A DNA stretch of 36,068 nucleotides from a virus (taxonomy: Duplodnaviria > Caudoviricetes): the IMG/VR virus record IMGVR_UViG_3300024344_002536, positions 1 to 36,068 of that record; one strand, 5' to 3'. Below, piece by piece: positions 2,829-26,031 of this stretch. The notes beneath the pieces are model-generated. The model searched no databases. It saw only the letters and a list, made by a program, of their open reading frames with translations, and was not told the origin of the DNA. Within the stretch, counting starts at the first letter, position 1, and every line of letters begins with the position of its first letter. The translations under genes and the position numbers were made by a program.

Positions 2829-3168
2829 TATTTATCAGTACCTAGTTTGGAAGTTTTTGCAAAACCCAGAAAAGGTAAGCTGGCCCAAGGAGGTAAAGAT
2901 AGCAAAATCTTTAATAAAGGACTTTGGGGAGCAGATATTTAAAGACTTGGATTTTAGTGAGCTCAAACTCGAAAGCTTAGCTCAGTTCCGCACTGAAAAA
3001 TTTAAAAAATATTTATCAAAACAAAACAAGTTATCTAGCCTTGACTTTAAAAAAGAACATGCTATACTAGATAAAGAGATAGAGGTAACTAAACCAAAAG
3101 AAAAGAAACCAAAAACTTTAATTGATTTTTTAAGACATGGCAGCAAAGAAGAAGAAAAGAGTAAGTGA
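2806..3168 (+). CDS. hypothetical protein
   Basis: 120-aa ORF filling the gap between PMM and recA, overlapping both. Confidence 0.65.
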   Translation: MKRKKINNIYQYLVWKFLQNPEKVSWPKEVKIAKSLIKDFGEQIFKDLDFSELKLESLAQFRTEKFKKYLSKQNKLSSLDFKKEHAILDKEIEVTKPKEKKPKTLIDFLRHGSKEEEKSK

Positions 3169-4276
3169 AGATGGAGTTTTAACCTCAGCGGAACAGTTAT
3201 CATCGTTCCTTAAAACCCATAAAGAAGATCATTACAATTACGAAGAGACGGTTGAATACAAAGTTTCAACAGGGTCTTTAACTCTAGATATTGAGACAGG
3301 AGGCGGACTAGGCCCGGGGCTTCATCGCTTTTGCGGTATTAATGAGGGAGGCAAGACGTCAGAAGCACTTGAAGTGACTAGACATTTCCTTAAAATGCCA
3401 AACGCGAGAGCTGTCTATTTTAAATGCGAAGGCAGGCTTAGTCCAGAGATGAGAGAGAGGGCTGGTGTAGAATTTATAGACACAAGAGAGCCGGAAAACT
3501 GGAAAGACGGAACTTGTTTTATTTACGAGAGCAATATTTACGAGTCGGTGTTCGATATGATGAAGATGCTTATCCAATTCAACGAAGAAGATAAGAAGTA
3601 TTTATTCATACTTGATTCAGTAGATGGGCTACAAACTAAGAGCGATAGCGAAAAAGCCCTAGACGACGCAACTAAAGTTGCTGGCGGCGCTACTATCAGC
3701 TCCGTATTCATGAAGAAGGTAGCCACTGCTCTAACAAAACGAGGTCATATGGCTATTTTTATTAGTCAAGTCAGGGCAGATATTCAGATAGACCCGTATT
3801 CAAAAGCCCCTGTGAGGCAAACGTCAGCCACGGGAGGCAATGCCCTACTCCACTTTGCTAACTGGATTCTTGAGTTTGAGCCTCGTTATAAAAAAGATTA
3901 TATTCTTGAGGACGACAAGAAAGCTCCAGACAGAGTATCGAATAAGATTTTAGGTCAGTGGTCCAAAGTTACAGTCAAGAAGTCTCCTAACGAAAAAACC
4001 AATGTTGTCATTGGTTATCCAATTAAACGAGGCCGAAAAAACGGCACAAGTATTTGGAAAGAGTTAGAGATTGTAGATTTGTTATTGCAATATGAGTTTG
4101 TTTCTAAATCTGGAGCTTGGATAAAAGTCTCTGAAGAGATAGTGCAACAGTTAAAAGATAACAATATTGAAATACCTGACAAATTTCAAGGTAGGAATGG
4201 TTTATTTAATTATCTAGAGGATAATACCGAAGCTACTAATTATTTCTACAAAATGTTTAAGGAAACTTTAGCTTGA
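3137..4276 (+). CDS. recA: RecA/UvsX-family recombinase
   Basis: VSTGSLTLDI, Walker A GINEGGKT, Walker B FILDSV, IFISQVR, TGGNALLH, KSGAW. Confidence 0.9.
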   Translation: MAAKKKKRVSEDGVLTSAEQLSSFLKTHKEDHYNYEETVEYKVSTGSLTLDIETGGGLGPGLHRFCGINEGGKTSEALEVTRHFLKMPNARAVYFKCEGRLSPEMRERAGVEFIDTREPENWKDGTCFIYESNIYESVFDMMKMLIQFNEEDKKYLFILDSVDGLQTKSDSEKALDDATKVAGGATISSVFMKKVATALTKRGHMAIFISQVRADIQIDPYSKAPVRQTSATGGNALLHFANWILEFEPRYKKDYILEDDKKAPDRVSNKILGQWSKVTVKKSPNEKTNVVIGYPIKRGRKNGTSIWKELEIVDLLLQYEFVSKSGAWIKVSEEIVQQLKDNNIEIPDKFQGRNGLFNYLEDNTEATNYFYKMFKETLA

Positions 4277-4301
4277 CATGAATTCAAGCTTGTGTTAATA
4301 T
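4273..4301 (+). promoter_or_regulatory. sigma70-type promoter for the candidate ncRNA, with inverted repeat AGCTTGA-N7-TCAAGCT (4270-4290)
   Basis: TTGACA-17bp-TAATAT with extended TG. Confidence 0.7.
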
Positions 4302-4306
4302 AAAAG

Positions 4307-4516
4307 AACGTTAGCAAGAATTTCCTCTCTCGACGGAGAGAGGCGGTGTGACGGAACAATCTCTCCCAAGGAGGTAACGTAGCACCTGCGGAAGTACCGA
4401 CGGCCAAGTGGCAGAGGGAAAACGTGGATGAGTCCGAAGTAGGTAGATCTGAAACATTTGTTTCTCGGGTACCGAAAAGGTGTTGGTAAACAAATAATCC
4501 AACCACCATTTTTTTT
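4307..4516 (+). ncRNA. candidate structured non-coding RNA (~200 nt), family not recognised
   Basis: Intergenic, ~50% GC by hand count in an AT-rich genome, upstream promoter, several helices, 3' hairpin plus T8, no + strand ORF in the track. Confidence 0.7.
4479..4516 (+). terminator. 3' hairpin plus T8 ending the candidate ncRNA
   Basis: GGTGTTGG (4479-4486) pairs with CCAAcCACC (4499-4507), followed by ATTTTTTTT. Confidence 0.5.
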
Positions 4517-4523
4517 AATTTAG

Positions 4524-4745
4524 ATGAAGACGAAACACGCTCAAAGAAAAGCAGAGAAGCAGAAGCTGAGAAAAACTCGCAGCGTCAAGCAAGGTATTGT
4601 TAATAGCCGAGACATGGTAGTGCGCGGGCTAAAGCAAGAGATTCGAAGGGACTTCAAAAGGTTTAAAAGGAATCACGCTGCCGATTCAGACCTTATTTCT
4701 TACATCAAAAAACTAGAGTCTCAGGTCACCCAAGTCATGTCGTGA
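4524..4745 (+). CDS. small basic hypothetical protein
   Basis: 73 aa, K/R-rich; stop overlaps next GTG start. Confidence 0.65.
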   Translation: MKTKHAQRKAEKQKLRKTRSVKQGIVNSRDMVVRGLKQEIRRDFKRFKRNHAADSDLISYIKKLESQVTQVMS

Positions 4746-8887: not shown

Positions 8888-8916
8888 TTGACTTTTAGTT
8901 CAGTATAATGTAGTAT
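8888..8916 (+). promoter_or_regulatory. sigma70-type promoter upstream of the polymerase genes
   Basis: TTGACT-17bp-TAGTAT. Confidence 0.6.
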
Positions 8917-8927
8917 TGGGCTACAGG

Positions 8928-9689
8928 ATGAAGTCTATTCCCTTATTTAAATCTCATTACAGTATCGGTAGGTCTATTCTCACCTTAGAGGATACCGAGG
9001 AAAAGCGAGAGAACTATCCATCTTCTATAGTTGAGATAGCAAAGCGTAATAAAATGAAGTCGGTGTTCTTAGTAGAGGATACTATGAACGGTTTCCTCGA
9101 AGCCTATAAGAACCTTAACGAAGCAGGTATAAAGCTTGTATTTGGATATAGGGTGTCTGTCTGTAATGACAGCACAGAGAAAAATAAAGATTCAATAGAT
9201 ACAGAATCTAAGTTTGTTGTGTTAGCTAGAAACGAGGAAGGCTACAAAAAACTCATCAAGATTTCGAGCTATGCGGCATGTGATGGATTTTATTACCAAC
9301 CTAGAATTGATTTTTCAGTTCTTGAGAAATATTGGGACGACGAAGACCTACAGCTATGCGTACCGTTTTACGATTCCTTTTTGTTTAAAAATTCTCTGAC
9401 TTTTGCTGTATGTTTTCCTAAGTTTGAGTTTACTAAGCCGGTATTTTTTGTAGAGGACAACGATGTGCCTTTTGACTATATAATTAAAAAGAAAGTAGAA
9501 TCATATTGCAATGAGAACAAATTACAGTCGATCCCAGTCAAGTCTATATATTATGAATGCAGGGACGATTTCAAGGCTTACCTTACTTTTCGCTGCATTA
9601 ACAACAGGACTACTCTTGATAATCCTCGTTTTGACCACCTATGCTCTAATGAATTTAGTTTTGATAGCTGGAAGGAGGCTCAGGCTTAA
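8928..9689 (+). CDS. stand-alone PHP domain of DNA polymerase III alpha
   Basis: KSHYS, GIKLVFG, VVLARNEEGYKKLIKISS, GFYYQPRID; ATG 8928 preferred to TTG 8916. Confidence 0.85.
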   Translation: MKSIPLFKSHYSIGRSILTLEDTEEKRENYPSSIVEIAKRNKMKSVFLVEDTMNGFLEAYKNLNEAGIKLVFGYRVSVCNDSTEKNKDSIDTESKFVVLARNEEGYKKLIKISSYAACDGFYYQPRIDFSVLEKYWDDEDLQLCVPFYDSFLFKNSLTFAVCFPKFEFTKPVFFVEDNDVPFDYIIKKKVESYCNENKLQSIPVKSIYYECRDDFKAYLTFRCINNRTTLDNPRFDHLCSNEFSFDSWKEAQA

Positions 9690-10327
9690 TGGACGAACAC
9701 CTACTAAGATTCAGAAAGGATAAGAAGCTTGTCTTTATTGACTGCGAGACATATAATCTTTGCTTAAGCTTTTGTCATAACGTATCATGGCAGGTTTCCA
9801 TGATAAAAACAGACGGTACAAAGAAGCTTGATGAAAAGGATTATTATATCAAGTGGGACACCGATTTTAAAATAAGCGAAGATGCTGCACGTATTACTCG
9901 TTACGACGAAGACTACGTTAATAAAAATGGCAAGACGCTCAAACAGACCCTACCTACTATTGTAAAGTGGCTAGATGACGCTGACTATGTAGTTGGACAT
10001 AACATACTAGGCTTTGACCTTTATCTAATAAAAGAGCTTTACAAGTTAGCTGGCAAAGATTATAAACCATTAGTGCCGAAGATTATTGATACTAATTGTA
10101 TAGCCAGAGGCATTAAGATGGATATACCCTACAAGCCAGAAGAAGACTTTACTGAATATCAATATAGAATATATAACACAAGAAGAAAAGGTATTAAATC
10201 TAGTTTAACTTTTTTAGGTAAAGAGTTTGATATAGATCATGATTACGAAAAGCTTCACAATGCTATCGTTGATTTAGAGTTGAATTTAAAAGTTTGGAAC
10301 CGCTTAAAGTATTCCCTAGAACTATGA
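9689..10327 (+). CDS. DEDDh 3'-5' exonuclease (DnaQ/epsilon-like)
   Basis: ExoI FIDCET, ExoII GHNILGFD, ExoIII HNAIVD. Confidence 0.88.
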   Translation: MDEHLLRFRKDKKLVFIDCETYNLCLSFCHNVSWQVSMIKTDGTKKLDEKDYYIKWDTDFKISEDAARITRYDEDYVNKNGKTLKQTLPTIVKWLDDADYVVGHNILGFDLYLIKELYKLAGKDYKPLVPKIIDTNCIARGIKMDIPYKPEEDFTEYQYRIYNTRRKGIKSSLTFLGKEFDIDHDYEKLHNAIVDLELNLKVWNRLKYSLEL

Positions 10328-12891
10328 CACCAAATACATTTTTAAAAAAGTTTAAGAAGATAGACCTGCCTTTGCATGGTGTACGCCTACCATCTTTTGA
10401 GATCAGTGAACAAGCCAAGAGAGAGCATGAGATCAGCGATGAAGACGACAATAATCAGATACTTCGTAAGCTATGCTTAGCTGGTTATAAAGAAAAGATT
10501 GAGTCAGGAGAGCTTGACGCAACTAAAGCTGAAGCATACACAGATAGAACCGAGTACGAAATCAGCATTATGGAGGAGCTAGGCTTCGTAGACTACATGC
10601 TGCTGACTTGGGATGTAATCAATTTTTGCAAAGAGAGCGATATACCTATTGGTTTAGGTCGTGGGTCTGCTGCAGGAAGCTTTGTCTTGTTCTTGCTTGG
10701 TATAACTAACTTAGATCCAATTAAGTATAGCTTATTCTTTGAGCGGTTCATATCTAAAATTCGAGCTAAAAAGCAGGTAGTAGACGGGGTGACGTATCTT
10801 GACGGCAATCTGATGGTTGATATTGATAATGACGTTTGTTATTATAATAGACATAAAGTCTTAGATTATATTGATAATAAATTCAAAGGTAAGACCGCCA
10901 AGATACTAACCCTTAACACTCTGAGCGGTAAGCTATTAATAAAAGAATGCGGTAAGATCATAGCTAGCAAGAGTGAGTCGGAAATGAATATGGTCTCTGG
11001 TCATATTCCTAAAATTTTTGGCCAAGTAAAAGACCTAGAGGAAACTTACGATGAAGTTAAAGAGTTCAAGAGCTGGTGCGATGAAACAGAGAACAGAGAA
11101 GCATATAAAATTGCTCTGAAGCTCAGAGGCTTAATTAAAAACAAGAGCGTTCACGCCTCTGGAGTTTTGCTCTCTTATGATCAGTTAGAGGACAGTTGCC
11201 CAGTAGAGCTTACAAGTGATAAAGCTGTAGTGTCGTCTTACGATATGAATTGGGTATCCCTCTTTAATGTTAAGCTTGATATTCTAGGACTACGTAGTGT
11301 CTCCGTGGTTCATGATGTGTGCCAGCAAGTTGGCTTAAAGGTTACAGATATCGATCTTGACGACCCTAGTATATATAGAAATTTACAAGACTTAAAAACT
11401 CCTCACGGTTTATTTCAGATTGAAGCCGACACTAATTTTAGAGTGTGTCGAGATGTCAAACCAAAGAACCTAGAGGAACTTAGTGCGGTTCTCGCCCTAG
11501 GAAGACCGGGGGCTTTAGGGTTTGTCAAGCAGTATTCTGATTACGCTAACCATGATGTTTATGAACCAATACACCCCTTATTTGATGAGATTTTGAAAAG
11601 CACTGGTGGCGTTGCTCTTTACCAAGAACAGTTGATGCAAATGGCTCACAAGATTGGTTTTACTCTTGACGAAGCAGAGATACTTAGGCGTATCGTAGGC
11701 AAAAAGAAAGTTAAAGAGGTAAAAGAATGGAAGAAGAAGATTGTCGACAAGGTAAAAGAAAACAAACTCGGAGAAGAAGTAGGAGATGTACTTTGGGGCG
11801 TACTTGAAGATTCAGCGAACTACTCGTTTAATAAGTCTCATTCTATTTGCTATGCAGCTTTAGCAGCAATTACAACTTACTTAAAATTCAACCATCCCAA
11901 AGAGTTCTTTTCGTCATTGTTGAAAATGACAAAGTACGAGCCAGATCCCTTAGCTGAAGTAAACAAAGTACAGACAGAGCTAGATCTATTTGATATAAGA
12001 CTTCTACCTCCTCACATTACAAAGTCGAAAATGGATTTCAGCATCGAGGATAAAGATATCCGCTACGGACTAACCTCTATCAAAGGTATATCGGATAAGA
12101 CTATCGAGAAATTAAATAACTTCCGAGCAGAATTTACTAATAAGTTTGAAGTGTTCCAAGCTGCCAGCGAAGCAAAGGTAGGCATTGGAGTTCTCTCTGC
12201 CTTAATACAAGCAGGAGCCTTCGAAGGGTTTCCTCAATCTAGAAGCAAGATAGTATTAGAAGCTCAGCTATGGAACTTACTAACACAAAGAGAAAAGAGA
12301 ATAGCTTACAGCTTAGGAGAAAAACATAACTTTGATTTAATAAATATTATTAAAAATTTAGTTGATAGAAAAGACGAAGATGGAAAGGTCTACATACGTT
12401 CTTCTAGGTTTGAAACCATCAAGAAGAAGTATACGCCATATAAAGACATATACCAACAAAACAGCAAGTCCGAAAGCCTAGCTAATTGGTATTATGAGAA
12501 GAAGCTTCTTGGATACTCTCACGCTAATTCATTGAAGGATGTGTACAGTACTAAAATCTCAGATCTTACAAGTATTAGAGACGTAAACGAATCTAGAGTC
12601 AACTCTAGGGTGCTGTTTATATCTACCGTAGAGGACTTTTACAAGGGTAAATCGAAAAAGGGGTCTCAGTACATTAGATTGACTTGTTCTGACGAGACAG
12701 GCACCATTACGGCTCTGCAATTCAATGCTAAGATCGAAGAGAGCAAGCTGATTAACGGCAAGCTTCCAGCTAAGGAAGACATTGTAATCATTAAAGCTTT
12801 GAAGAAAGATGATGCAGTATTTATTGATGATATTGGGATTCAGAGTCAGAAAATATTTACAAAGTTATCAGAACTGAAAGATATTGCTTGA
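10324..12891 (+). CDS. dnaE: DNA polymerase III alpha catalytic core (lacks PHP domain)
   Basis: GRGSAAGS, LFFERF, DIDND, HASGV, KLDILG, YQEQLMQ, YSFNKSH, OB-fold-like C-terminus; ATG 10324 overlaps upstream stop. Confidence 0.93.
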   Translation: MTPNTFLKKFKKIDLPLHGVRLPSFEISEQAKREHEISDEDDNNQILRKLCLAGYKEKIESGELDATKAEAYTDRTEYEISIMEELGFVDYMLLTWDVINFCKESDIPIGLGRGSAAGSFVLFLLGITNLDPIKYSLFFERFISKIRAKKQVVDGVTYLDGNLMVDIDNDVCYYNRHKVLDYIDNKFKGKTAKILTLNTLSGKLLIKECGKIIASKSESEMNMVSGHIPKIFGQVKDLEETYDEVKEFKSWCDETENREAYKIALKLRGLIKNKSVHASGVLLSYDQLEDSCPVELTSDKAVVSSYDMNWVSLFNVKLDILGLRSVSVVHDVCQQVGLKVTDIDLDDPSIYRNLQDLKTPHGLFQIEADTNFRVCRDVKPKNLEELSAVLALGRPGALGFVKQYSDYANHDVYEPIHPLFDEILKSTGGVALYQEQLMQMAHKIGFTLDEAEILRRIVGKKKVKEVKEWKKKIVDKVKENKLGEEVGDVLWGVLEDSANYSFNKSHSICYAALAAITTYLKFNHPKEFFSSLLKMTKYEPDPLAEVNKVQTELDLFDIRLLPPHITKSKMDFSIEDKDIRYGLTSIKGISDKTIEKLNNFRAEFTNKFEVFQAASEAKVGIGVLSALIQAGAFEGFPQSRSKIVLEAQLWNLLTQREKRIAYSLGEKHNFDLINIIKNLVDRKDEDGKVYIRSSRFETIKKKYTPYKDIYQQNSKSESLANWYYEKKLLGYSHANSLKDVYSTKISDLTSIRDVNESRVNSRVLFISTVEDFYKGKSKKGSQYIRLTCSDETGTITALQFNAKIEESKLINGKLPAKEDIVIIKALKKDDAVFIDDIGIQSQKIFTKLSELKDIA

Positions 12892-16393: not shown

Positions 16394-16411
16394 TTGGTGA
16401 ATATTCCCAAC

Positions 16412-16445
16412 AGGGCTGGGGTCTATCCCCCAGCTCTTTTATTTT
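16412..16445 (+). terminator. intrinsic terminator after nrdB
   Basis: AGGGCTGGGG / CCCCAGCTCT stem followed by T-rich run. Confidence 0.75.
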
Positions 16446-16492
16446 AAAATAAATAAATTTAACAAAAACAGTTTAAACAACGTATATATAAA

Positions 16493-16509
16493 CTGGCATA
16501 AAACTTGCA
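16493..16509 (+). promoter_or_regulatory. sigma54 (RpoN) -24/-12 promoter
   Basis: CTGGCAT-AAAAC-TTGCA, GG 16495-16496 and GC 16507-16508, canonical spacing. Confidence 0.6.
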
Positions 16510-16518
16510 AGTGTAATT
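16510..16518 (+). promoter_or_regulatory. AGTGTAATT motif (putative phage-specific promoter)
   Basis: Same 9-mer as at 5157 and 12937. Confidence 0.45.
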
Positions 16519-16524
16519 AGTATT

Positions 16525-18185: not shown

Positions 18186-18859
18186 TGCAAGTAAATTTAA
18201 TATCAATAACTCAACCTTATGACAAAGCTACTTCGTCACATCCAGAAGAATTAATAGCTTATTGTGCGCGTGTTAGTAATCCAGAAAATCAAAATAATAC
18301 TAAAACAGCGCCGAGACTTTTAAAGTTTTTAATCAAACATAAGCATTGGTCGCCATTTGAAATGGTAGACATGACCGTAGAGATTAAGACTAGCAGAGCT
18401 ATTGCCGCGCAAATACTTAGGCATAGAAGCTTCAGCTTCCAAGAATTTAGCCAAAGGTATTCAGAGGCTCAAACCCTAGAAGAACTAGAACTCAGAGTCC
18501 AAGCTGAGAAGAACAGACAAAGCAGCAGCGAAACATTTAGAGATGGCCACTTGTTAGCTAAAGTAAGAGAGCATACCGCAAAAGGCGTAGCCCTTTACAA
18601 TGAGTTGATTAGGGCTGGAGTAGCTAAAGAGTCCGCCAGAATGATTCTACCTCTTACGACAGAGACTACTATGTATATGAAAGGGAGTATCAGAAGCTGG
18701 GCTCATTACATTGACCTACGCGCAGAACAGAACACTCAGAAAGAGCATAGAGAAATAGCTGAAGAGTGTAAGCGTATATTTGTAGAAAACTTTCCTAACG
18801 TATCTGAAGCGTTATGGGCAGTTGAACATAGAGATGGCAGATGGAATCCAAAGCATTAA
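18185..18859 (+). CDS. thyX: flavin-dependent thymidylate synthase
   Basis: HWSPFE, RHRSFSFQEFSQR ThyX motif, ESARMILP, TQKEHR. Confidence 0.96.
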   Translation: MQVNLISITQPYDKATSSHPEELIAYCARVSNPENQNNTKTAPRLLKFLIKHKHWSPFEMVDMTVEIKTSRAIAAQILRHRSFSFQEFSQRYSEAQTLEELELRVQAEKNRQSSSETFRDGHLLAKVREHTAKGVALYNELIRAGVAKESARMILPLTTETTMYMKGSIRSWAHYIDLRAEQNTQKEHREIAEECKRIFVENFPNVSEALWAVEHRDGRWNPKH

Positions 18860-19101
18860 AGAAAGCCCGAGTTATGACTCGGCCGAAGTCAAACACTCTT
18901 GACCCACAAGGAGTTGTAGTGAAGAGTAATCTTGAGAGAAGCCTAGGCATAAAATATTTAAAGAAAGTTAGCGTTGGTCGCTACATAGAAGTTGAGTTAG
19001 AAGAAGGGCCAGAAGAGGATGTTAAAAAGAATATACAAGAAGCAATAGATAAGCTACTATATAATGAGATTATTGAAGACTACGAGGTTATGTATGAATA
19101 A
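18841..19101 (+). CDS. purS: phosphoribosylformylglycinamidine synthase PurS subunit
   Basis: LDPQG, VGRYIEVEL, KLLYNEIIEDY. Confidence 0.85.
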   Translation: MESKALKKARVMTRPKSNTLDPQGVVVKSNLERSLGIKYLKKVSVGRYIEVELEEGPEEDVKKNIQEAIDKLLYNEIIEDYEVMYE

Positions 19102-21191: not shown

Positions 21192-21436
21192 TGGACTTTC
21201 CATCAAAAGGATATAAAGAATTACGAGAAGATTGTCCAGATATACCAGCGGACACTTGCCCTCTTATAGACAGCACCCTAAAACACGTTACGGAAATAGA
21301 AGTAGCCCTAGAACAACTGAGAGATCAGAACGAAGCTTTAAGAGACGTTGGTAAATTTTGGAGAGCTACGTGTATTAACTTATTACAGGAATGTTGTGAT
21401 TTAAACAAATATATAAGAAAATTAGAAGATGAATAA
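21191..21436 (+). CDS. hypothetical coiled-coil protein
   Basis: ATG 21191 overlaps upstream TAA; TCPLID...LEQLRDQNEALR. Confidence 0.65.
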   Translation: MDFPSKGYKELREDCPDIPADTCPLIDSTLKHVTEIEVALEQLRDQNEALRDVGKFWRATCINLLQECCDLNKYIRKLEDE

Positions 21437-22412
21437 TAAAAAAGGTTTTAGTTTAATTGAGTTGTTGGTTGTTATTGCAATCATAGCTATTCTAGCTGCT
21501 CTACTCCTCCCCGCCCTTTCCAAGAGCAAGCAAAGCGCCACCAAGGCTTTATGTATTTCTAATCAAAAGCAGCTAAACTACGCAATGAGTCAGCTCGCTC
21601 TCGATTCAGATGATAAAATAGCTTACGCATCTGCTTGGCACAATGAGCCTACTGCACCTAGAGCTTGGGTTGCTGATAGTATGTCTGGCGGAAGCAGATG
21701 GAGCAAATGGGCGCAGACAGAAAGGTCTTTAATATGGTCTCCTTTATTCCAGTATGCTGGTAAAGGAATATATAGATGCCCTGAAGATAAATCCATGGTT
21801 AGCTGGAAAGGAGAAAGGTGGGGAATGGCAGAATCAGTTAATACTAATAAGAGTACTACTGTGCGAAGAGCTAGGTCTTATAGTATGAATATATTTGTAG
21901 GAGGGTGGTCTGGTTGGCCCTTCCTAAGTGACACTCAGTATAAAGTGCATCACAAATACTCAGACATAAGTGACGCAAGTAATTTATTTTCTTTTATTGA
22001 AATGCCTGCTGAATCAATTAACGCTGGAAACTTTAGGGTTACTCCCACGCTAACAGGCAAAGAATCTGTTTTTTCTATGGATTGGCCCGGCGTATATCAT
22101 ATTAATGGGTCGGTGATATCATTTACAGATGGGCATGCAGAGTTTAGAAGGTGGCTGGAAGAGGATACTATAGTAATCCCCCAATCTGTACAGAACCCTA
22201 CTACTAGGAAAGATATAGTTGTCAGTCCAAATAATAGAGACTTAAAATGGTTGCAAGATAAAGCTGTAGTTCCAGATCCTAATGATCATAATTGGTACGG
22301 TTGGATGGGAGGAATAGGAAGATACGATTGGAATATCAGAGAAATGGAAGGACCGCTAGGAGGAACTAAAAATTACGCAGCTTGGGGATGGTATTGGGAC
22401 GATGAATGGTAA
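21429..22412 (+). CDS. prepilin-type N-terminal cleavage/methylation protein with H-X9-DG C-terminal motif
   Basis: KKG/FSLIELLVVIAIIAILAALLLPAL, C.SNQKQL, YRCPED, SYSMN, HINGSVISFTDGH. Confidence 0.9.
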   Translation: MNNKKGFSLIELLVVIAIIAILAALLLPALSKSKQSATKALCISNQKQLNYAMSQLALDSDDKIAYASAWHNEPTAPRAWVADSMSGGSRWSKWAQTERSLIWSPLFQYAGKGIYRCPEDKSMVSWKGERWGMAESVNTNKSTTVRRARSYSMNIFVGGWSGWPFLSDTQYKVHHKYSDISDASNLFSFIEMPAESINAGNFRVTPTLTGKESVFSMDWPGVYHINGSVISFTDGHAEFRRWLEEDTIVIPQSVQNPTTRKDIVVSPNNRDLKWLQDKAVVPDPNDHNWYGWMGGIGRYDWNIREMEGPLGGTKNYAAWGWYWDDEW

Positions 22413-22687
22413 TGAATAGCAGCTTTACATTGTTAGAGTTACTATTGACCATAGCGGTCATAGCTCTACTTTGTAGTTTATCCCTTCAAAGCTATGCCAA
22501 TGCAAAGAGAAGAGCTCAGATAGCCGCATGCCAAATACATAAAAAACAAGTAGATATGTTAAGAAATATGCCCGAGTATAATGTAACTAGATTACAGCCA
22601 GAAGATATAGAAACACTAGTTAAAGTTTATGATCGATGCTACGAATGTCACGCATCAGCAAGTGTCCCATTTTATTACGTACAATGA
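22412..22687 (+). CDS. short prepilin-type protein with CxxCH motif
   Basis: SS/FTLLELLLTIAVIALL N-terminus; CYECH near C-terminus; ATG 22412 overlaps upstream TAA. Confidence 0.75.
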   Translation: MNSSFTLLELLLTIAVIALLCSLSLQSYANAKRRAQIAACQIHKKQVDMLRNMPEYNVTRLQPEDIETLVKVYDRCYECHASASVPFYYVQ

Positions 22688-24527: not shown

Positions 24528-24735
24528 AGGAGCAACTCATATCAGACTCGTAACAGACGAGGGTAAGATGTCTGAGTCTGACGTTAAGAACATAGATTGG
24601 GTATTTAGTTACCCATTTAGATGCCCCGGCAAGTTAGTCTTTTTAAAGAAAGTTAGAAATGGTTTTAAAGAATTGGATTCTATTGAATTCGATGGAGTAT
24701 GGCCACCAAAAGACAAGCCTCAAGTAATAACATGA
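24493..24735 (+). CDS. hypothetical protein
   Basis: 80-aa ORF; stop overlaps purT ATG. Confidence 0.65.
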
Positions 24736-25955
24736 GTACAGAAATAGGTACTCCCTTTTCTCAAAGCGCTACGAAAGTAATGCTTTGCGGCAGCGGAGAG
24801 TTAGGTAAAGAGGTAGTTATAGAGTTGCAGAGACTTGGAGTCGAAGTGACAGCAATCGACTCTTATGAGAATGCTCCTGCGATGCAAGTTGCAGATAATT
24901 CTTATGTCGTTAATATGCTTGACGCAGATAGCCTTAGAGAAACAATTAAAAAGGTCATGCCTCATTATATAATTCCAGAGGTTGAAGCTATAGCTACAGA
25001 TGTATTCATAGAAGCAGCAGCAAATGGAATAAAAGTAATTCCAGATGCCTCGGCAGTTAAGCTTACTATGAACAGAGAAGGCATAAGAACATTGGCCGCA
25101 GAGACTCTCGGATTAAATACTTCTAAATATAAATTCGCGAGCAATAAAGAGCAATTCATAGATGCTGTAATAAATAAAATAGGCATACCATGTATAGTGA
25201 AGCCAATTATGTCATCTAGTGGTAAAGGTCAAAGCACAATTAAAAGTGCCGCAGACATTGATCCTGCTTGGGAATACGCGCAGTCTGGAGGTCGTGCTGG
25301 AGCAGGGAAAGTCATCGTCGAAGAACTTATAGACTTCGATTATGAGATTACTTTGCTTACTGTAAGGCATACAGCAGACTACGTTGGACGCTGGCCCGGG
25401 GCAGTCGCCACAAGTTTTTGCGAGCCTATAGGTCATAAACAAATAGGTGGAGATTATGTTGAATCTTGGCAACCACACCCAATGACAACTCAAGCTCTTG
25501 AAAGTGCCAAAACGATAGCTAGATCAATTACAGATGCTTTAGGTGGCTACGGAGTGTTTGGAGTAGAGTTGTTTGTAAAATACGATGAAGTTTGGTTTTC
25601 TGAAGTTTCTCCTCGCCCACATGATACAGGGTTAGTTACCCTCATCTCTCAAGATTTGTCTGAATTTGCTCTGCATGTTAGAGCCGTATTAGGCTTACCT
25701 ATACCAAATATTACGCAACACGGGCCTAGTGCTTCTCATGTAATTAAGGTAGAAGGCTCTGGAAATAATATATTGTTTTCAAATTTAGATAAAGCCTTGA
25801 GACATACTGATACCCAGTTAAGGCTATTCGGCAAACCTAGCATTAACGGAGAGCGTCGAATGGGAGTCGTCATGGCTCGCGGAGATAGTATTCAAGAAGC
25901 TAGGGACAAAGCTAAAAGAGTTGTAAGCGACATAGAAGTAGACTTTTTCTCTTGA
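24732..25955 (+). CDS. purT: formate-dependent phosphoribosylglycinamide formyltransferase
   Basis: [59 protein letters not shown]...RRMGV. Confidence 0.96.
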
Positions 25956-26031
25956 GCCCCGATGGCCGAATGGATAAGGCAACAGCCTTCTAAGCTGTAG
26001 ATTCTAGGTTCGAGTCCTAGTCGGGGTACCA
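25956..26031 (+). tRNA. tRNA-Arg (anticodon TCT)
   Basis: Acceptor GCCCCGA/TCGGGGT, anticodon arm ACAGC-CTTCTAA-GCTGT, T arm CTAGG-TTCGAGT-CCTAG, encoded ACCA; 76 nt. Confidence 0.96.

Follow-up and report, generated by a model that had tools for sequence, protein, structure and literature searches.

The closest described relative of the RNA analysed here is manA (RF01745), proposed as a 5' UTR riboswitch in the part of the original report that deals with it (Weinberg et al. 2010, PMC2864571). In the text of a cryo-EM study (bioRxiv 10.64898/2026.07.01.735769), manA is described as forming pentamers, octamers, decamers and a pentamer-built 60-mer, with intermolecular kissing of loops L5-L7', L8-L9' or L3-L8', and was imaged as intact assemblies after Mg2+ folding in vitro. 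The manA passage of another paper places the RNA, in a cyanophage, between the wcaG and abiF RNAs (PMC9964418), and the portions of PMC7779021 and bioRxiv 2020.02.04.933952 that concern manA give the Rfam alignment only. An orphan riboswitch candidate since 2010, manA was found in 2026 to form RNA-only cages in vitro, for which a biological role is lacking. Two other kinds of locus are relevant for comparison: type III toxin-antitoxin loci (ToxIN type) consist of a promoter, a structured RNA, a terminator and a small gene, and the lambdoid N antiterminators are small proteins with a basic N-terminal helix, found with boxA leaders.

The window studied here is a 36,068-nt stretch of tailed-phage DNA (IMG/VR record IMGVR_UViG_3300024344_002536), which holds a phage replication region with a RecA/UvsX-like gene, DnaB, primase and a split DnaE, as well as ribonucleotide reductase, ThyX, PurS and PurT genes. 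A first-pass annotation, made from the letters of this one stretch, had proposed a new class of structured RNA downstream of recA. That annotation is supported in placing here a conserved and structured phage RNA that is non-coding, has a promoter of its own and forms loop-loop pairings; judged by sequence and covariation, however, the RNA is a divergent branch of manA and not a new class. We file it as a manA variant because it misses Rfam's cut-off and lacks the L5-L7 module. New here are the inverted-sequence L3 pairing, the reduced inner multiloop and a downstream basic ORF of 71-75 aa, and the significance of the locus lies in its partner gene, re-keyed loops and array context, not in the class of RNA.

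The RNA, its setting and its family

The gap 4277-4523 is, as had been noted, the longest between listed plus-strand ORFs of the window (247 nt vs 131 nt for the next), and the GC content of 4321-4510, counted by hand as about 50%, is 50.0% vs 37.7% for the window. The second-longest gap (16394-16524, 131 nt) lies 3' of the small reductase subunit gene. The promoter read at one end of the RNA is present (Table 1) and is kept in relatives, 18-22 nt 5' of the RNA where no array intervenes; the match alone is weak, because promoter-type sites number 33 in 10 kb vs 24.8 in shuffles. At the other end the hairpin followed by eight Ts was confirmed; our terminator scan did not list it because its loop is 12 nt.

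Table 1. Coordinates of the features at the locus, in window positions
Feature	Position	Strand	Basis or remark
RecA/UvsX-like recombinase gene	3137..4276	+	stop codon inside the -35 box of the RNA promoter
Sigma70-type promoter, TTGACA-17-TAATAT with TG extension	4273..4301	+	predicted; start site predicted near 4308
manA-like structured RNA, about 188 nt	4321..4508	+	homology and covariation
P1, 5' hairpin with GACG loop	4324..4343	+	two-sided change in 5 of 8 pairs
P2, 5' strand, pairing with 4504-4507	4345..4348	+	inferred from manA homology
manA core, TGACGGAA ... TAACGT (ACG/CGT pairs)	4349..4380	+	encloses stem P3
P3, stem 4359-4363/4371-4375, loop 4364-4370	within 4349..4380	+	homology and pair counts
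L3, CCCAAG 4365-4370 with CTCGGG 4464-4469	4365..4370	+	inverted sequence relative to cyanophage manA
P4, 4383-4390/4423-4430, and reduced multiloop with one hairpin, 4403-4412	4383..4430	+	covariation
Tertiary contact 4400-4401:4408-4409, 2 bp	within 4383..4430	+	4 and 3 joint changes; paired in 70/70
P8 domain: stem 4442-4445/4470-4473, inner stem GAAA(C)/(G)TTTC 4451-4464, loop L8	4442..4473	+	
L8-L9 pairing 4456-4461:4490-4495	4456..4495	+	pseudoknot of the first-pass annotation, shortened
Predicted intrinsic terminator: P9 4482-4486/4499-4503, extension 4479-4481/4505-4507, T-tract 4509-4516	4479..4516	+	competes with P2
73-aa basic ORF	4524..4745	+	pI 11.1; 10 K/R in first 22 residues; travels with the RNA

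The recA gene is a neighbour of the RNA and no fixed partner: the RNA stands 3' of recA in just 14 of 80 recA loci, in all of which RecA is at least 90% identical (one of them, L023, is identical to the window), and other phages carry it elsewhere. G004, a relative that carries the same RNA, is a record of 170 kb with a completeness rating of 100%. Between phages whose RecA proteins are 47% identical the RNA is identical at 169 of 187 positions, which suggests that the cassette is exchanged or strongly constrained. Elsewhere in the window the DNA polymerase III alpha gene is split into a PHP domain (8916-9689) and a catalytic part (10294-12891; whole region 8916-12891), with an exonuclease gene (9689-10327) between the two; there are auxiliary PurS and PurT genes and two pilin-like N-methylation ORFs (18841-19101, 21429-22687, 24699-26031), and a tRNA-Arg(TCT) gene abuts the PurT stop codon. 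Matches to PurT (55-66%) were spread over several phyla in the 9 of 64 database parts scanned, and our own reading of the pilin-like genes gives only a hint of a host among the Planctomycetes/Verrucomicrobia.

Pattern scans returned 22 viral and at least 119 metagenome stretches, and 105 of the 119 listed metagenome stretches are real homologues. De-duplication left 70 distinct cores with a mean identity of 87% (alignment A2), which are partly re-assemblies of the same populations. Invariance at the 5' core words and at the CCC of L3 is partly built in, because the patterns fixed the former and, in the metagenome scan, also the latter. A looser viral pattern scan had 32 manA-like rows among the 120 matches listed, and a second had one clade member among its 120. 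In 50,697 annotated phage records blastn matched nothing but chance pieces of 28-35 nt, the RNA pattern had no match in GTDB genomes, and a model of the clade (R1) matched nothing in four more distant relatives (70-87% complete) or in 66 recA loci.

At Rfam's gathering threshold no family matched at 4277-4523, and the only match window-wide was a tRNA. An E-value scan matched manA at 4326-4513 over positions 1-192 of the 192 in the model, at 45.8 bits (E 9.7e-11), 9.4 bits short of the gathering cut-off of 55.2. All 20 homologues tested match the same model (29.7-48.4 bits), and none of 14 control genomes does. Reciprocally, R1 recognises 4 of 15 Rfam-type manA loci at full length, with E values of roughly 3e-6 to 8e-3, and three of these four exceed the Rfam cut-off; among the 15 it does not match the main cyanophage type. 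The manA core words and the stem order P1, P2, P3, P4, P8, P9 are present, P2 by homology only. The proposed new class, for which an Rfam hit had been named as the refuting result, thus essentially gives way to the manA match, and divergent rows with the same sub-motifs already stand in the 2010 alignment (PMC2864571), whose first 10 rows include two with an ACGGAA core, two with a small AAGY hairpin and one with a pyrimidine L3. The earlier failure to match tRNA, tmRNA, RNase P, SRP or 6S RNA is upheld by covariance models and ARAGORN, and a covariance-model scan matched no ribozyme family at E up to 10.

The likeness to manA extends to length, P1 with its GACG loop, the long-range P2, the GUGAC-GAA and UAA-GU core, the GGUA...AUCC terminal hairpin, the L8-L9 and L3 loop pairings, phage origin and a promoter directly upstream. 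By contrast, L3 pairs as CCCAAG:CUCGGG in this clade and as GGCAU:AUGCC in manA; the three-hairpin multiloop of manA, with its L5 (GUGGUG)-L7 (ACCA) kiss, is found in Rfam-type rows and is absent from A2, being replaced by one hairpin and a 2-bp contact; and the clade has a 4-bp P8 outer stem, an 11-nt linker 3' of P4 and a terminator extension that competes with P2. Some rows of the PMC2864571 alignment likewise lack the L5-L7 three-hairpin module. Downstream of manA stand sugar, nucleotide, chaperone and photosynthesis genes, whereas here there is a basic ORF without a known family.

Further divergent manA subtypes with other loop keys occur on viral contigs (L103, L113, L114, L131, L138, L177). 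The Rfam-type L103 and L113 lie inside tRNA clusters, with tRNA genes on both sides, and L114 and L131 score below Rfam's manA cut-off. We rejected the idea that CCACCA at the 3' end mimics tRNA, since its CACC is required for pairing and Rfam-type members have other ends.

Helices, loop pairings and competing folds

Because the single sequence folds no better than expected by chance (z -1.33; equalled by 24 of 200 shuffles), the structural case rests on covariation among homologues. Covariation, which the first-pass annotation had suggested checking, came out in favour of structure in an unbiased scan and in pair counts: the 70 distinct homologues support the manA helix order and two loop pairings, with 96.2% of cells paired and two-sided change in 20 of 54 pairs, as compared with 42-49% paired in slid controls and 83.7% for the helix set first drawn. 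Since the structure was drawn from the same alignment, joint changes counted on the tree weigh more than these pair counts; they number about 15 at 4445:4470 (A-U 41, U-A 18, C-G 9 and unpaired 2 in the 70 cores), 8 at 4403:4412, 5 at 4484:4501, 4 at 4400:4409, 3 each at 4401:4408 and 4370:4464, and 1 each at 4386:4427 and 4457:4494.

Among the helices drawn from the single sequence, the 5' hairpin (P1), the GCC/GGC hairpin (G-C 45, A-U 23, G-U 2) and the terminal GTTGG/CCAAC stem (two-sided change in 3 of 5 pairs) are borne out. The pairing of GGTGTgACG with CGTaGCACC stands in part: it is compatible with the alignment and favoured by RNAalifold and the partition function, but G4346-C4385 is broken in 45 of 70 cores; it competes with the long-range stem P2 of manA, all four pairs of which are invariant in the clade and vary in step in Rfam-type members. 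CTCC-CAA-GGAG proved out of register, its last pair being broken in 38 of 70, and P3 is the supported stem; GTACCGA/TCgGGTAC, drawn as closing a multiloop, fails with 53% of cells paired, the supported partner of 4470-4473 being 4442-4445 instead; and GGA-TGAG-TCC shows no two-sided change, its 5' strand lying inside P4. The 3' strand of a further helix, TTTCCTCT (4321-4328) with AGAGGGAA (4413-4420), varies freely in A2. Within P4, 45 of the 70 cores do not form the pair 4385:4428, and in one homologue (L548) the core pairs change from AC:GT to GC:GC. Three unpaired cells of helix 10 are explained by a one-base misalignment of P9 in L297, L232 and L261, and these three were left out of the partition function (67 of 70 used). 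Another homologue (L239:2-140) has an inserted hairpin of ~40 nt in its P4 multiloop, at the site of the variable hairpin of Rfam-type manA.

Two loop pairings emerge. That of L3 with 4464-4469 had been overlooked in the first-pass annotation; its pair 4370:4464 is G-C in 32 cores and A-U in 38. The second is the 8-bp pseudoknot noticed there, which is exact in the window and coincides with complementary loops of the Rfam manA consensus; its conserved core, however, is 5-6 bp, because 4462:4489 is broken in 47 of 70 and changes nine times on one side only. L8-L9 has one two-sided change within the clade, and the exclusivity with the GAAAC hairpin that had been supposed is not needed, since five core base pairs can coexist with a shortened GAAA/TTTC stem. 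The 2-bp contact 4400-4401:4408-4409 leaves no linker before 4410, which points either to a compact pseudoknot formed locally or to an intermolecular contact; covariation does not separate intra- from intermolecular pairing.

Across one member of each of seven manA subtypes, the complementarity of a subtype's own loops was compared with that of reshuffled partners (5040 permutations) and was reached in 36 of 5040 for L3 and 167 of 5040 for L9. A first L3 test had been null (4.3-4.8 vs 4.4 shuffled) because the loop was defined by MFE folding, with L103 and L131 mis-parsed; as it passed only after loop re-anchoring, the cross-subtype result is supportive and not clean. Complementary loops stand here at positions that map to the L8-L9 and L3-L8 contacts described in the text of the cryo-EM study (bioRxiv 10.64898/2026.07.01.735769), the mapping onto published L numbers being drawn from stem order. 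Both manA types of that text have the L5-L7 kiss, a clear counterpart of which is absent here, and our clade is not among the RNAs that it describes as studied.

The CACC at 4504-4507 has alternative partners, GGTG at 4345-4348 (P2) or GGT at 4479-4481 in the last hairpin, before the T-tract. The latter pairing extends P9 by a clade-specific element (4479-4481/4505-4507). All 70 cores keep CACC and both GGTG copies (4345-4348 and 4479-4482) without change, and the second GGTG lies outside the search patterns. Three fixed folds have energies of -41.7, -40.9 and -42.4 kcal/mol, within about 1.5 kcal/mol. An ensemble computed without tertiary contacts gives the terminator 0.97, the 5' helix of the first-pass annotation 0.995 and P2 about 0, and RNAalifold agrees on terminator and 5' helix, so that the manA fold would need tertiary or quaternary help. 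These modelled energetics would fit termination followed by refolding and attenuation alike.

No reading frame is kept among homologues, none of the 70 cores having an open plus frame. Minus-strand frames are stop-free in 50-66 of 70 and are broken by internal 1-nt indels: base 4456 is missing in 18 of 70, many cores have one more base at 4343/4344, and lengths run from 187 to 191.

Arrays, transcripts and the downstream ORF

In 52 of 69 de-duplicated loci with at least 500 nt upstream, the RNA ends a non-coding array; inspection of the upstream DNA places a TTGACA-type promoter within some 200 nt in 16 of the 17 array-less loci, and in one (L002) the RNA abuts the recA stop codon. The array order is promoter, module A, a word that we take to be boxA-like, optional module C, module B, optional module D, the RNA and optional module E; most arrays carry the boxA-like word, and AU-rich spacers separate the RNA from the other modules. 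In at least 9 loci the RNA is separated from the basic ORF by a module or another ORF (module E in 7 of them; the others are L098 and L548).

The discrete transcript that was looked for is not shown by the data of X1, X3 and X4. X1, a metatranscriptome, has one contig, identical to 4292-4444 at depth 2.2, which starts inside the promoter, contigs giving neither ends nor strand; runs X3 and X4 have depths of 19-42 on the RNA vs 0-6 beside it, their 'RNA' origin being a guess and the depths of related phages being summed.

A basic ORF of 71-75 aa follows the RNA in 73 of 78 loci with at least 150 nt downstream (26 loci with less were set aside), and three of the five loci missing it end inside module E. 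It starts 10-16 nt 3' of the RNA in most loci, and it is present in exactly those 14 of 80 recA loci that have the RNA; a reverse search by protein gave nine loci, all carrying the RNA and two of them new. The family is small, as it comprises 16 representatives at 50% identity. Structure prediction gives three helices (pLDDT 92, pTM 0.61). The protein has no PADLOC, Pfam or PHROGs family, no fold match and no PDB sequence match at E up to 10, and its Atlas match (0.83) is to an unnamed viral cluster that may be its own. We consider it possible, though less likely than not, that it binds the manA-like RNA. Like the lambdoid N proteins it is small with a basic N-terminal helix, and a boxA-like GTTCTTTG(A) is present in 39 of 70 contexts; unlike them, it stays with the RNA in boxA-less lineages, the window included. 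Neither sequence nor fold matched it to N proteins, short basic peptides being hard to detect.

Proposed mechanism and alternatives

We give about even chances to a stand-alone RNA that terminates, refolds, oligomerises and is perhaps protein-bound. The promoter at 4273-4301 would start an RNA of about 200 nt, in which the local hairpin 4479-4507 would form first and end most transcripts at the T-tract; the released RNA would then swap the terminator extension for the long-range P2, paid for by tertiary contacts, and, by analogy with cryo-EM manA, loop pairings would form between molecules and give pentamer-based oligomers. A minority of read-through may yield the 73-aa basic protein, which may bind the RNA, and in array-bearing relatives cleavage or termination would release the RNA from a long non-coding transcript. 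At a guess, the most plausible part of the assembly in an infection would be that of a multivalent scaffold or decoy to which RNA-binding proteins of the host attach. We read the RNA as stand-alone because it ends arrays, is set off by AU-rich spacers, can be parted from the ORF by a module or another ORF and, in L103 and L113, lies between tRNA genes, and also because the terminator is favoured without tertiary contacts (0.97). A cis role would account just as well for the near-fixed ORF downstream.

Such a role, which we regard as the main rival, possible but less likely than not, would make the RNA an attenuator or riboswitch of the basic ORF: the P2-closed manA fold would remove the terminator extension and permit read-through, the alternative fold (the first-pass 5' helix with the extended 3' hairpin) would terminate, and either a metabolite or the basic protein would serve as the trigger. 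Three near-equal folds, GGTG copies and CACC without change in 70/70, the short distance to the ORF start in most loci and the description of manA as a 5' UTR riboswitch candidate in the relevant part of PMC2864571 all suit this arrangement. The invariant pairs, however, give no covariation signal; at least 9 loci have something between RNA and ORF, in arrays the RNA is just one of several modules, the ORF is not metabolic by any family match, and a literature search with most subscription journals outside its scope listed nothing on a ligand or protein partner of manA or on arrays led by boxA. With terminator and manA folds nearly equal, cis and trans models should be separable by a few mutations.

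A pair of the type III toxin-antitoxin or anti-defence kind, in which the RNA would neutralise the protein or decoy a host defence nuclease, is unlikely. Promoter, pseudoknotted RNA, terminator and small protein do form a type III layout, linkage holds both ways (73 of 78 and 9 of 9), and the cassette, which moves between sites, is present in some relatives and absent from others. Type III antitoxins, though, are tandem RNA repeats, which are absent here, where a single and larger RNA of about 188 nt stands; and the protein, without a PADLOC, Pfam, PHROGs or ToxN-type family match, looks like a basic helical RNA binder and not an endoribonuclease.

A self-cleaving or processing ribozyme freeing modules from the array is more improbable still: the fold is complex, its single-stranded core (TGACGGAA, TAACGT, AGTCCGAAGTA) is invariant and the array context needs processing, but no family matched at E up to 10, the RNA also stands alone behind a promoter, and related manA RNAs are described as intact after Mg2+ folding in the text of bioRxiv 10.64898/2026.07.01.735769. 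Coding or chance sequence (reverse-strand ORFs 4246-4509 and 4311-4502) is scarcely credible, as against the z of only -1.33 and minus-strand frames stop-free in 50-66 of 70 cores stand 1-nt indels, the lack of an open plus frame in all 70, compensatory changes and the full-length manA match.

Beyond the stand-alone reading itself, we tentatively propose, as an idea we hold to be less than probable, a two-part ribonucleoprotein cassette: a manA cage with re-keyed kissing loops and a K/R-rich protein that would bind it and tune its terminator, deployed either behind a solo promoter or in a boxA-led multi-RNA operon. If this is true, the protein would be manA's first protein partner, and manA cages would be functional particles rather than riboswitches. 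The near-fixed 73-aa partner gene supplies a candidate ligand, and from the different letters of the loops one would predict that the RNA assembles with itself but not with cyanophage manA.

The arrays in relatives comprise at least five structured modules without an Rfam match (none at E up to 0.5 in 20 loci). In L226, L236, L241, L250, L265, L295 and others they occupy 100-500 nt upstream of the RNA, and their modules are fixed at the ends and vary in the middle. The record G002, 67% complete, has an exact module-B word that is a chance match in a gene, and no separate array turned up there. In one locus (L003:6130-6300) about three imperfect tandem units of ~30 nt separate the RNA from the recA-end promoter; in L228, L278, L286 and L287 a different element of ~90 nt stands between promoter and RNA (upstream 100 nt), and a similar one occurs within the arrays of L086 and L295. 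Module E, 106-154 nt long and closed by an extended terminal stem, parts the RNA from the basic ORF (L236:912-1065, L265:1183-1336, L309:31-165, L330:471-576), and modules C and D measure 141-319 nt and 68-113 nt. Module A (43-75 nt) is an H-type pseudoknot before a T-tract, with a variable pair that is A-U in 21, G-C in 10 and U-A in 7 of 38. Module B (77-215 nt) has a GTGG(T/C)G loop, which equals the L5 loop of cyanophage manA that is absent from this clade; its loop and upstream strand switch together in 54 of 55, probably as one event.
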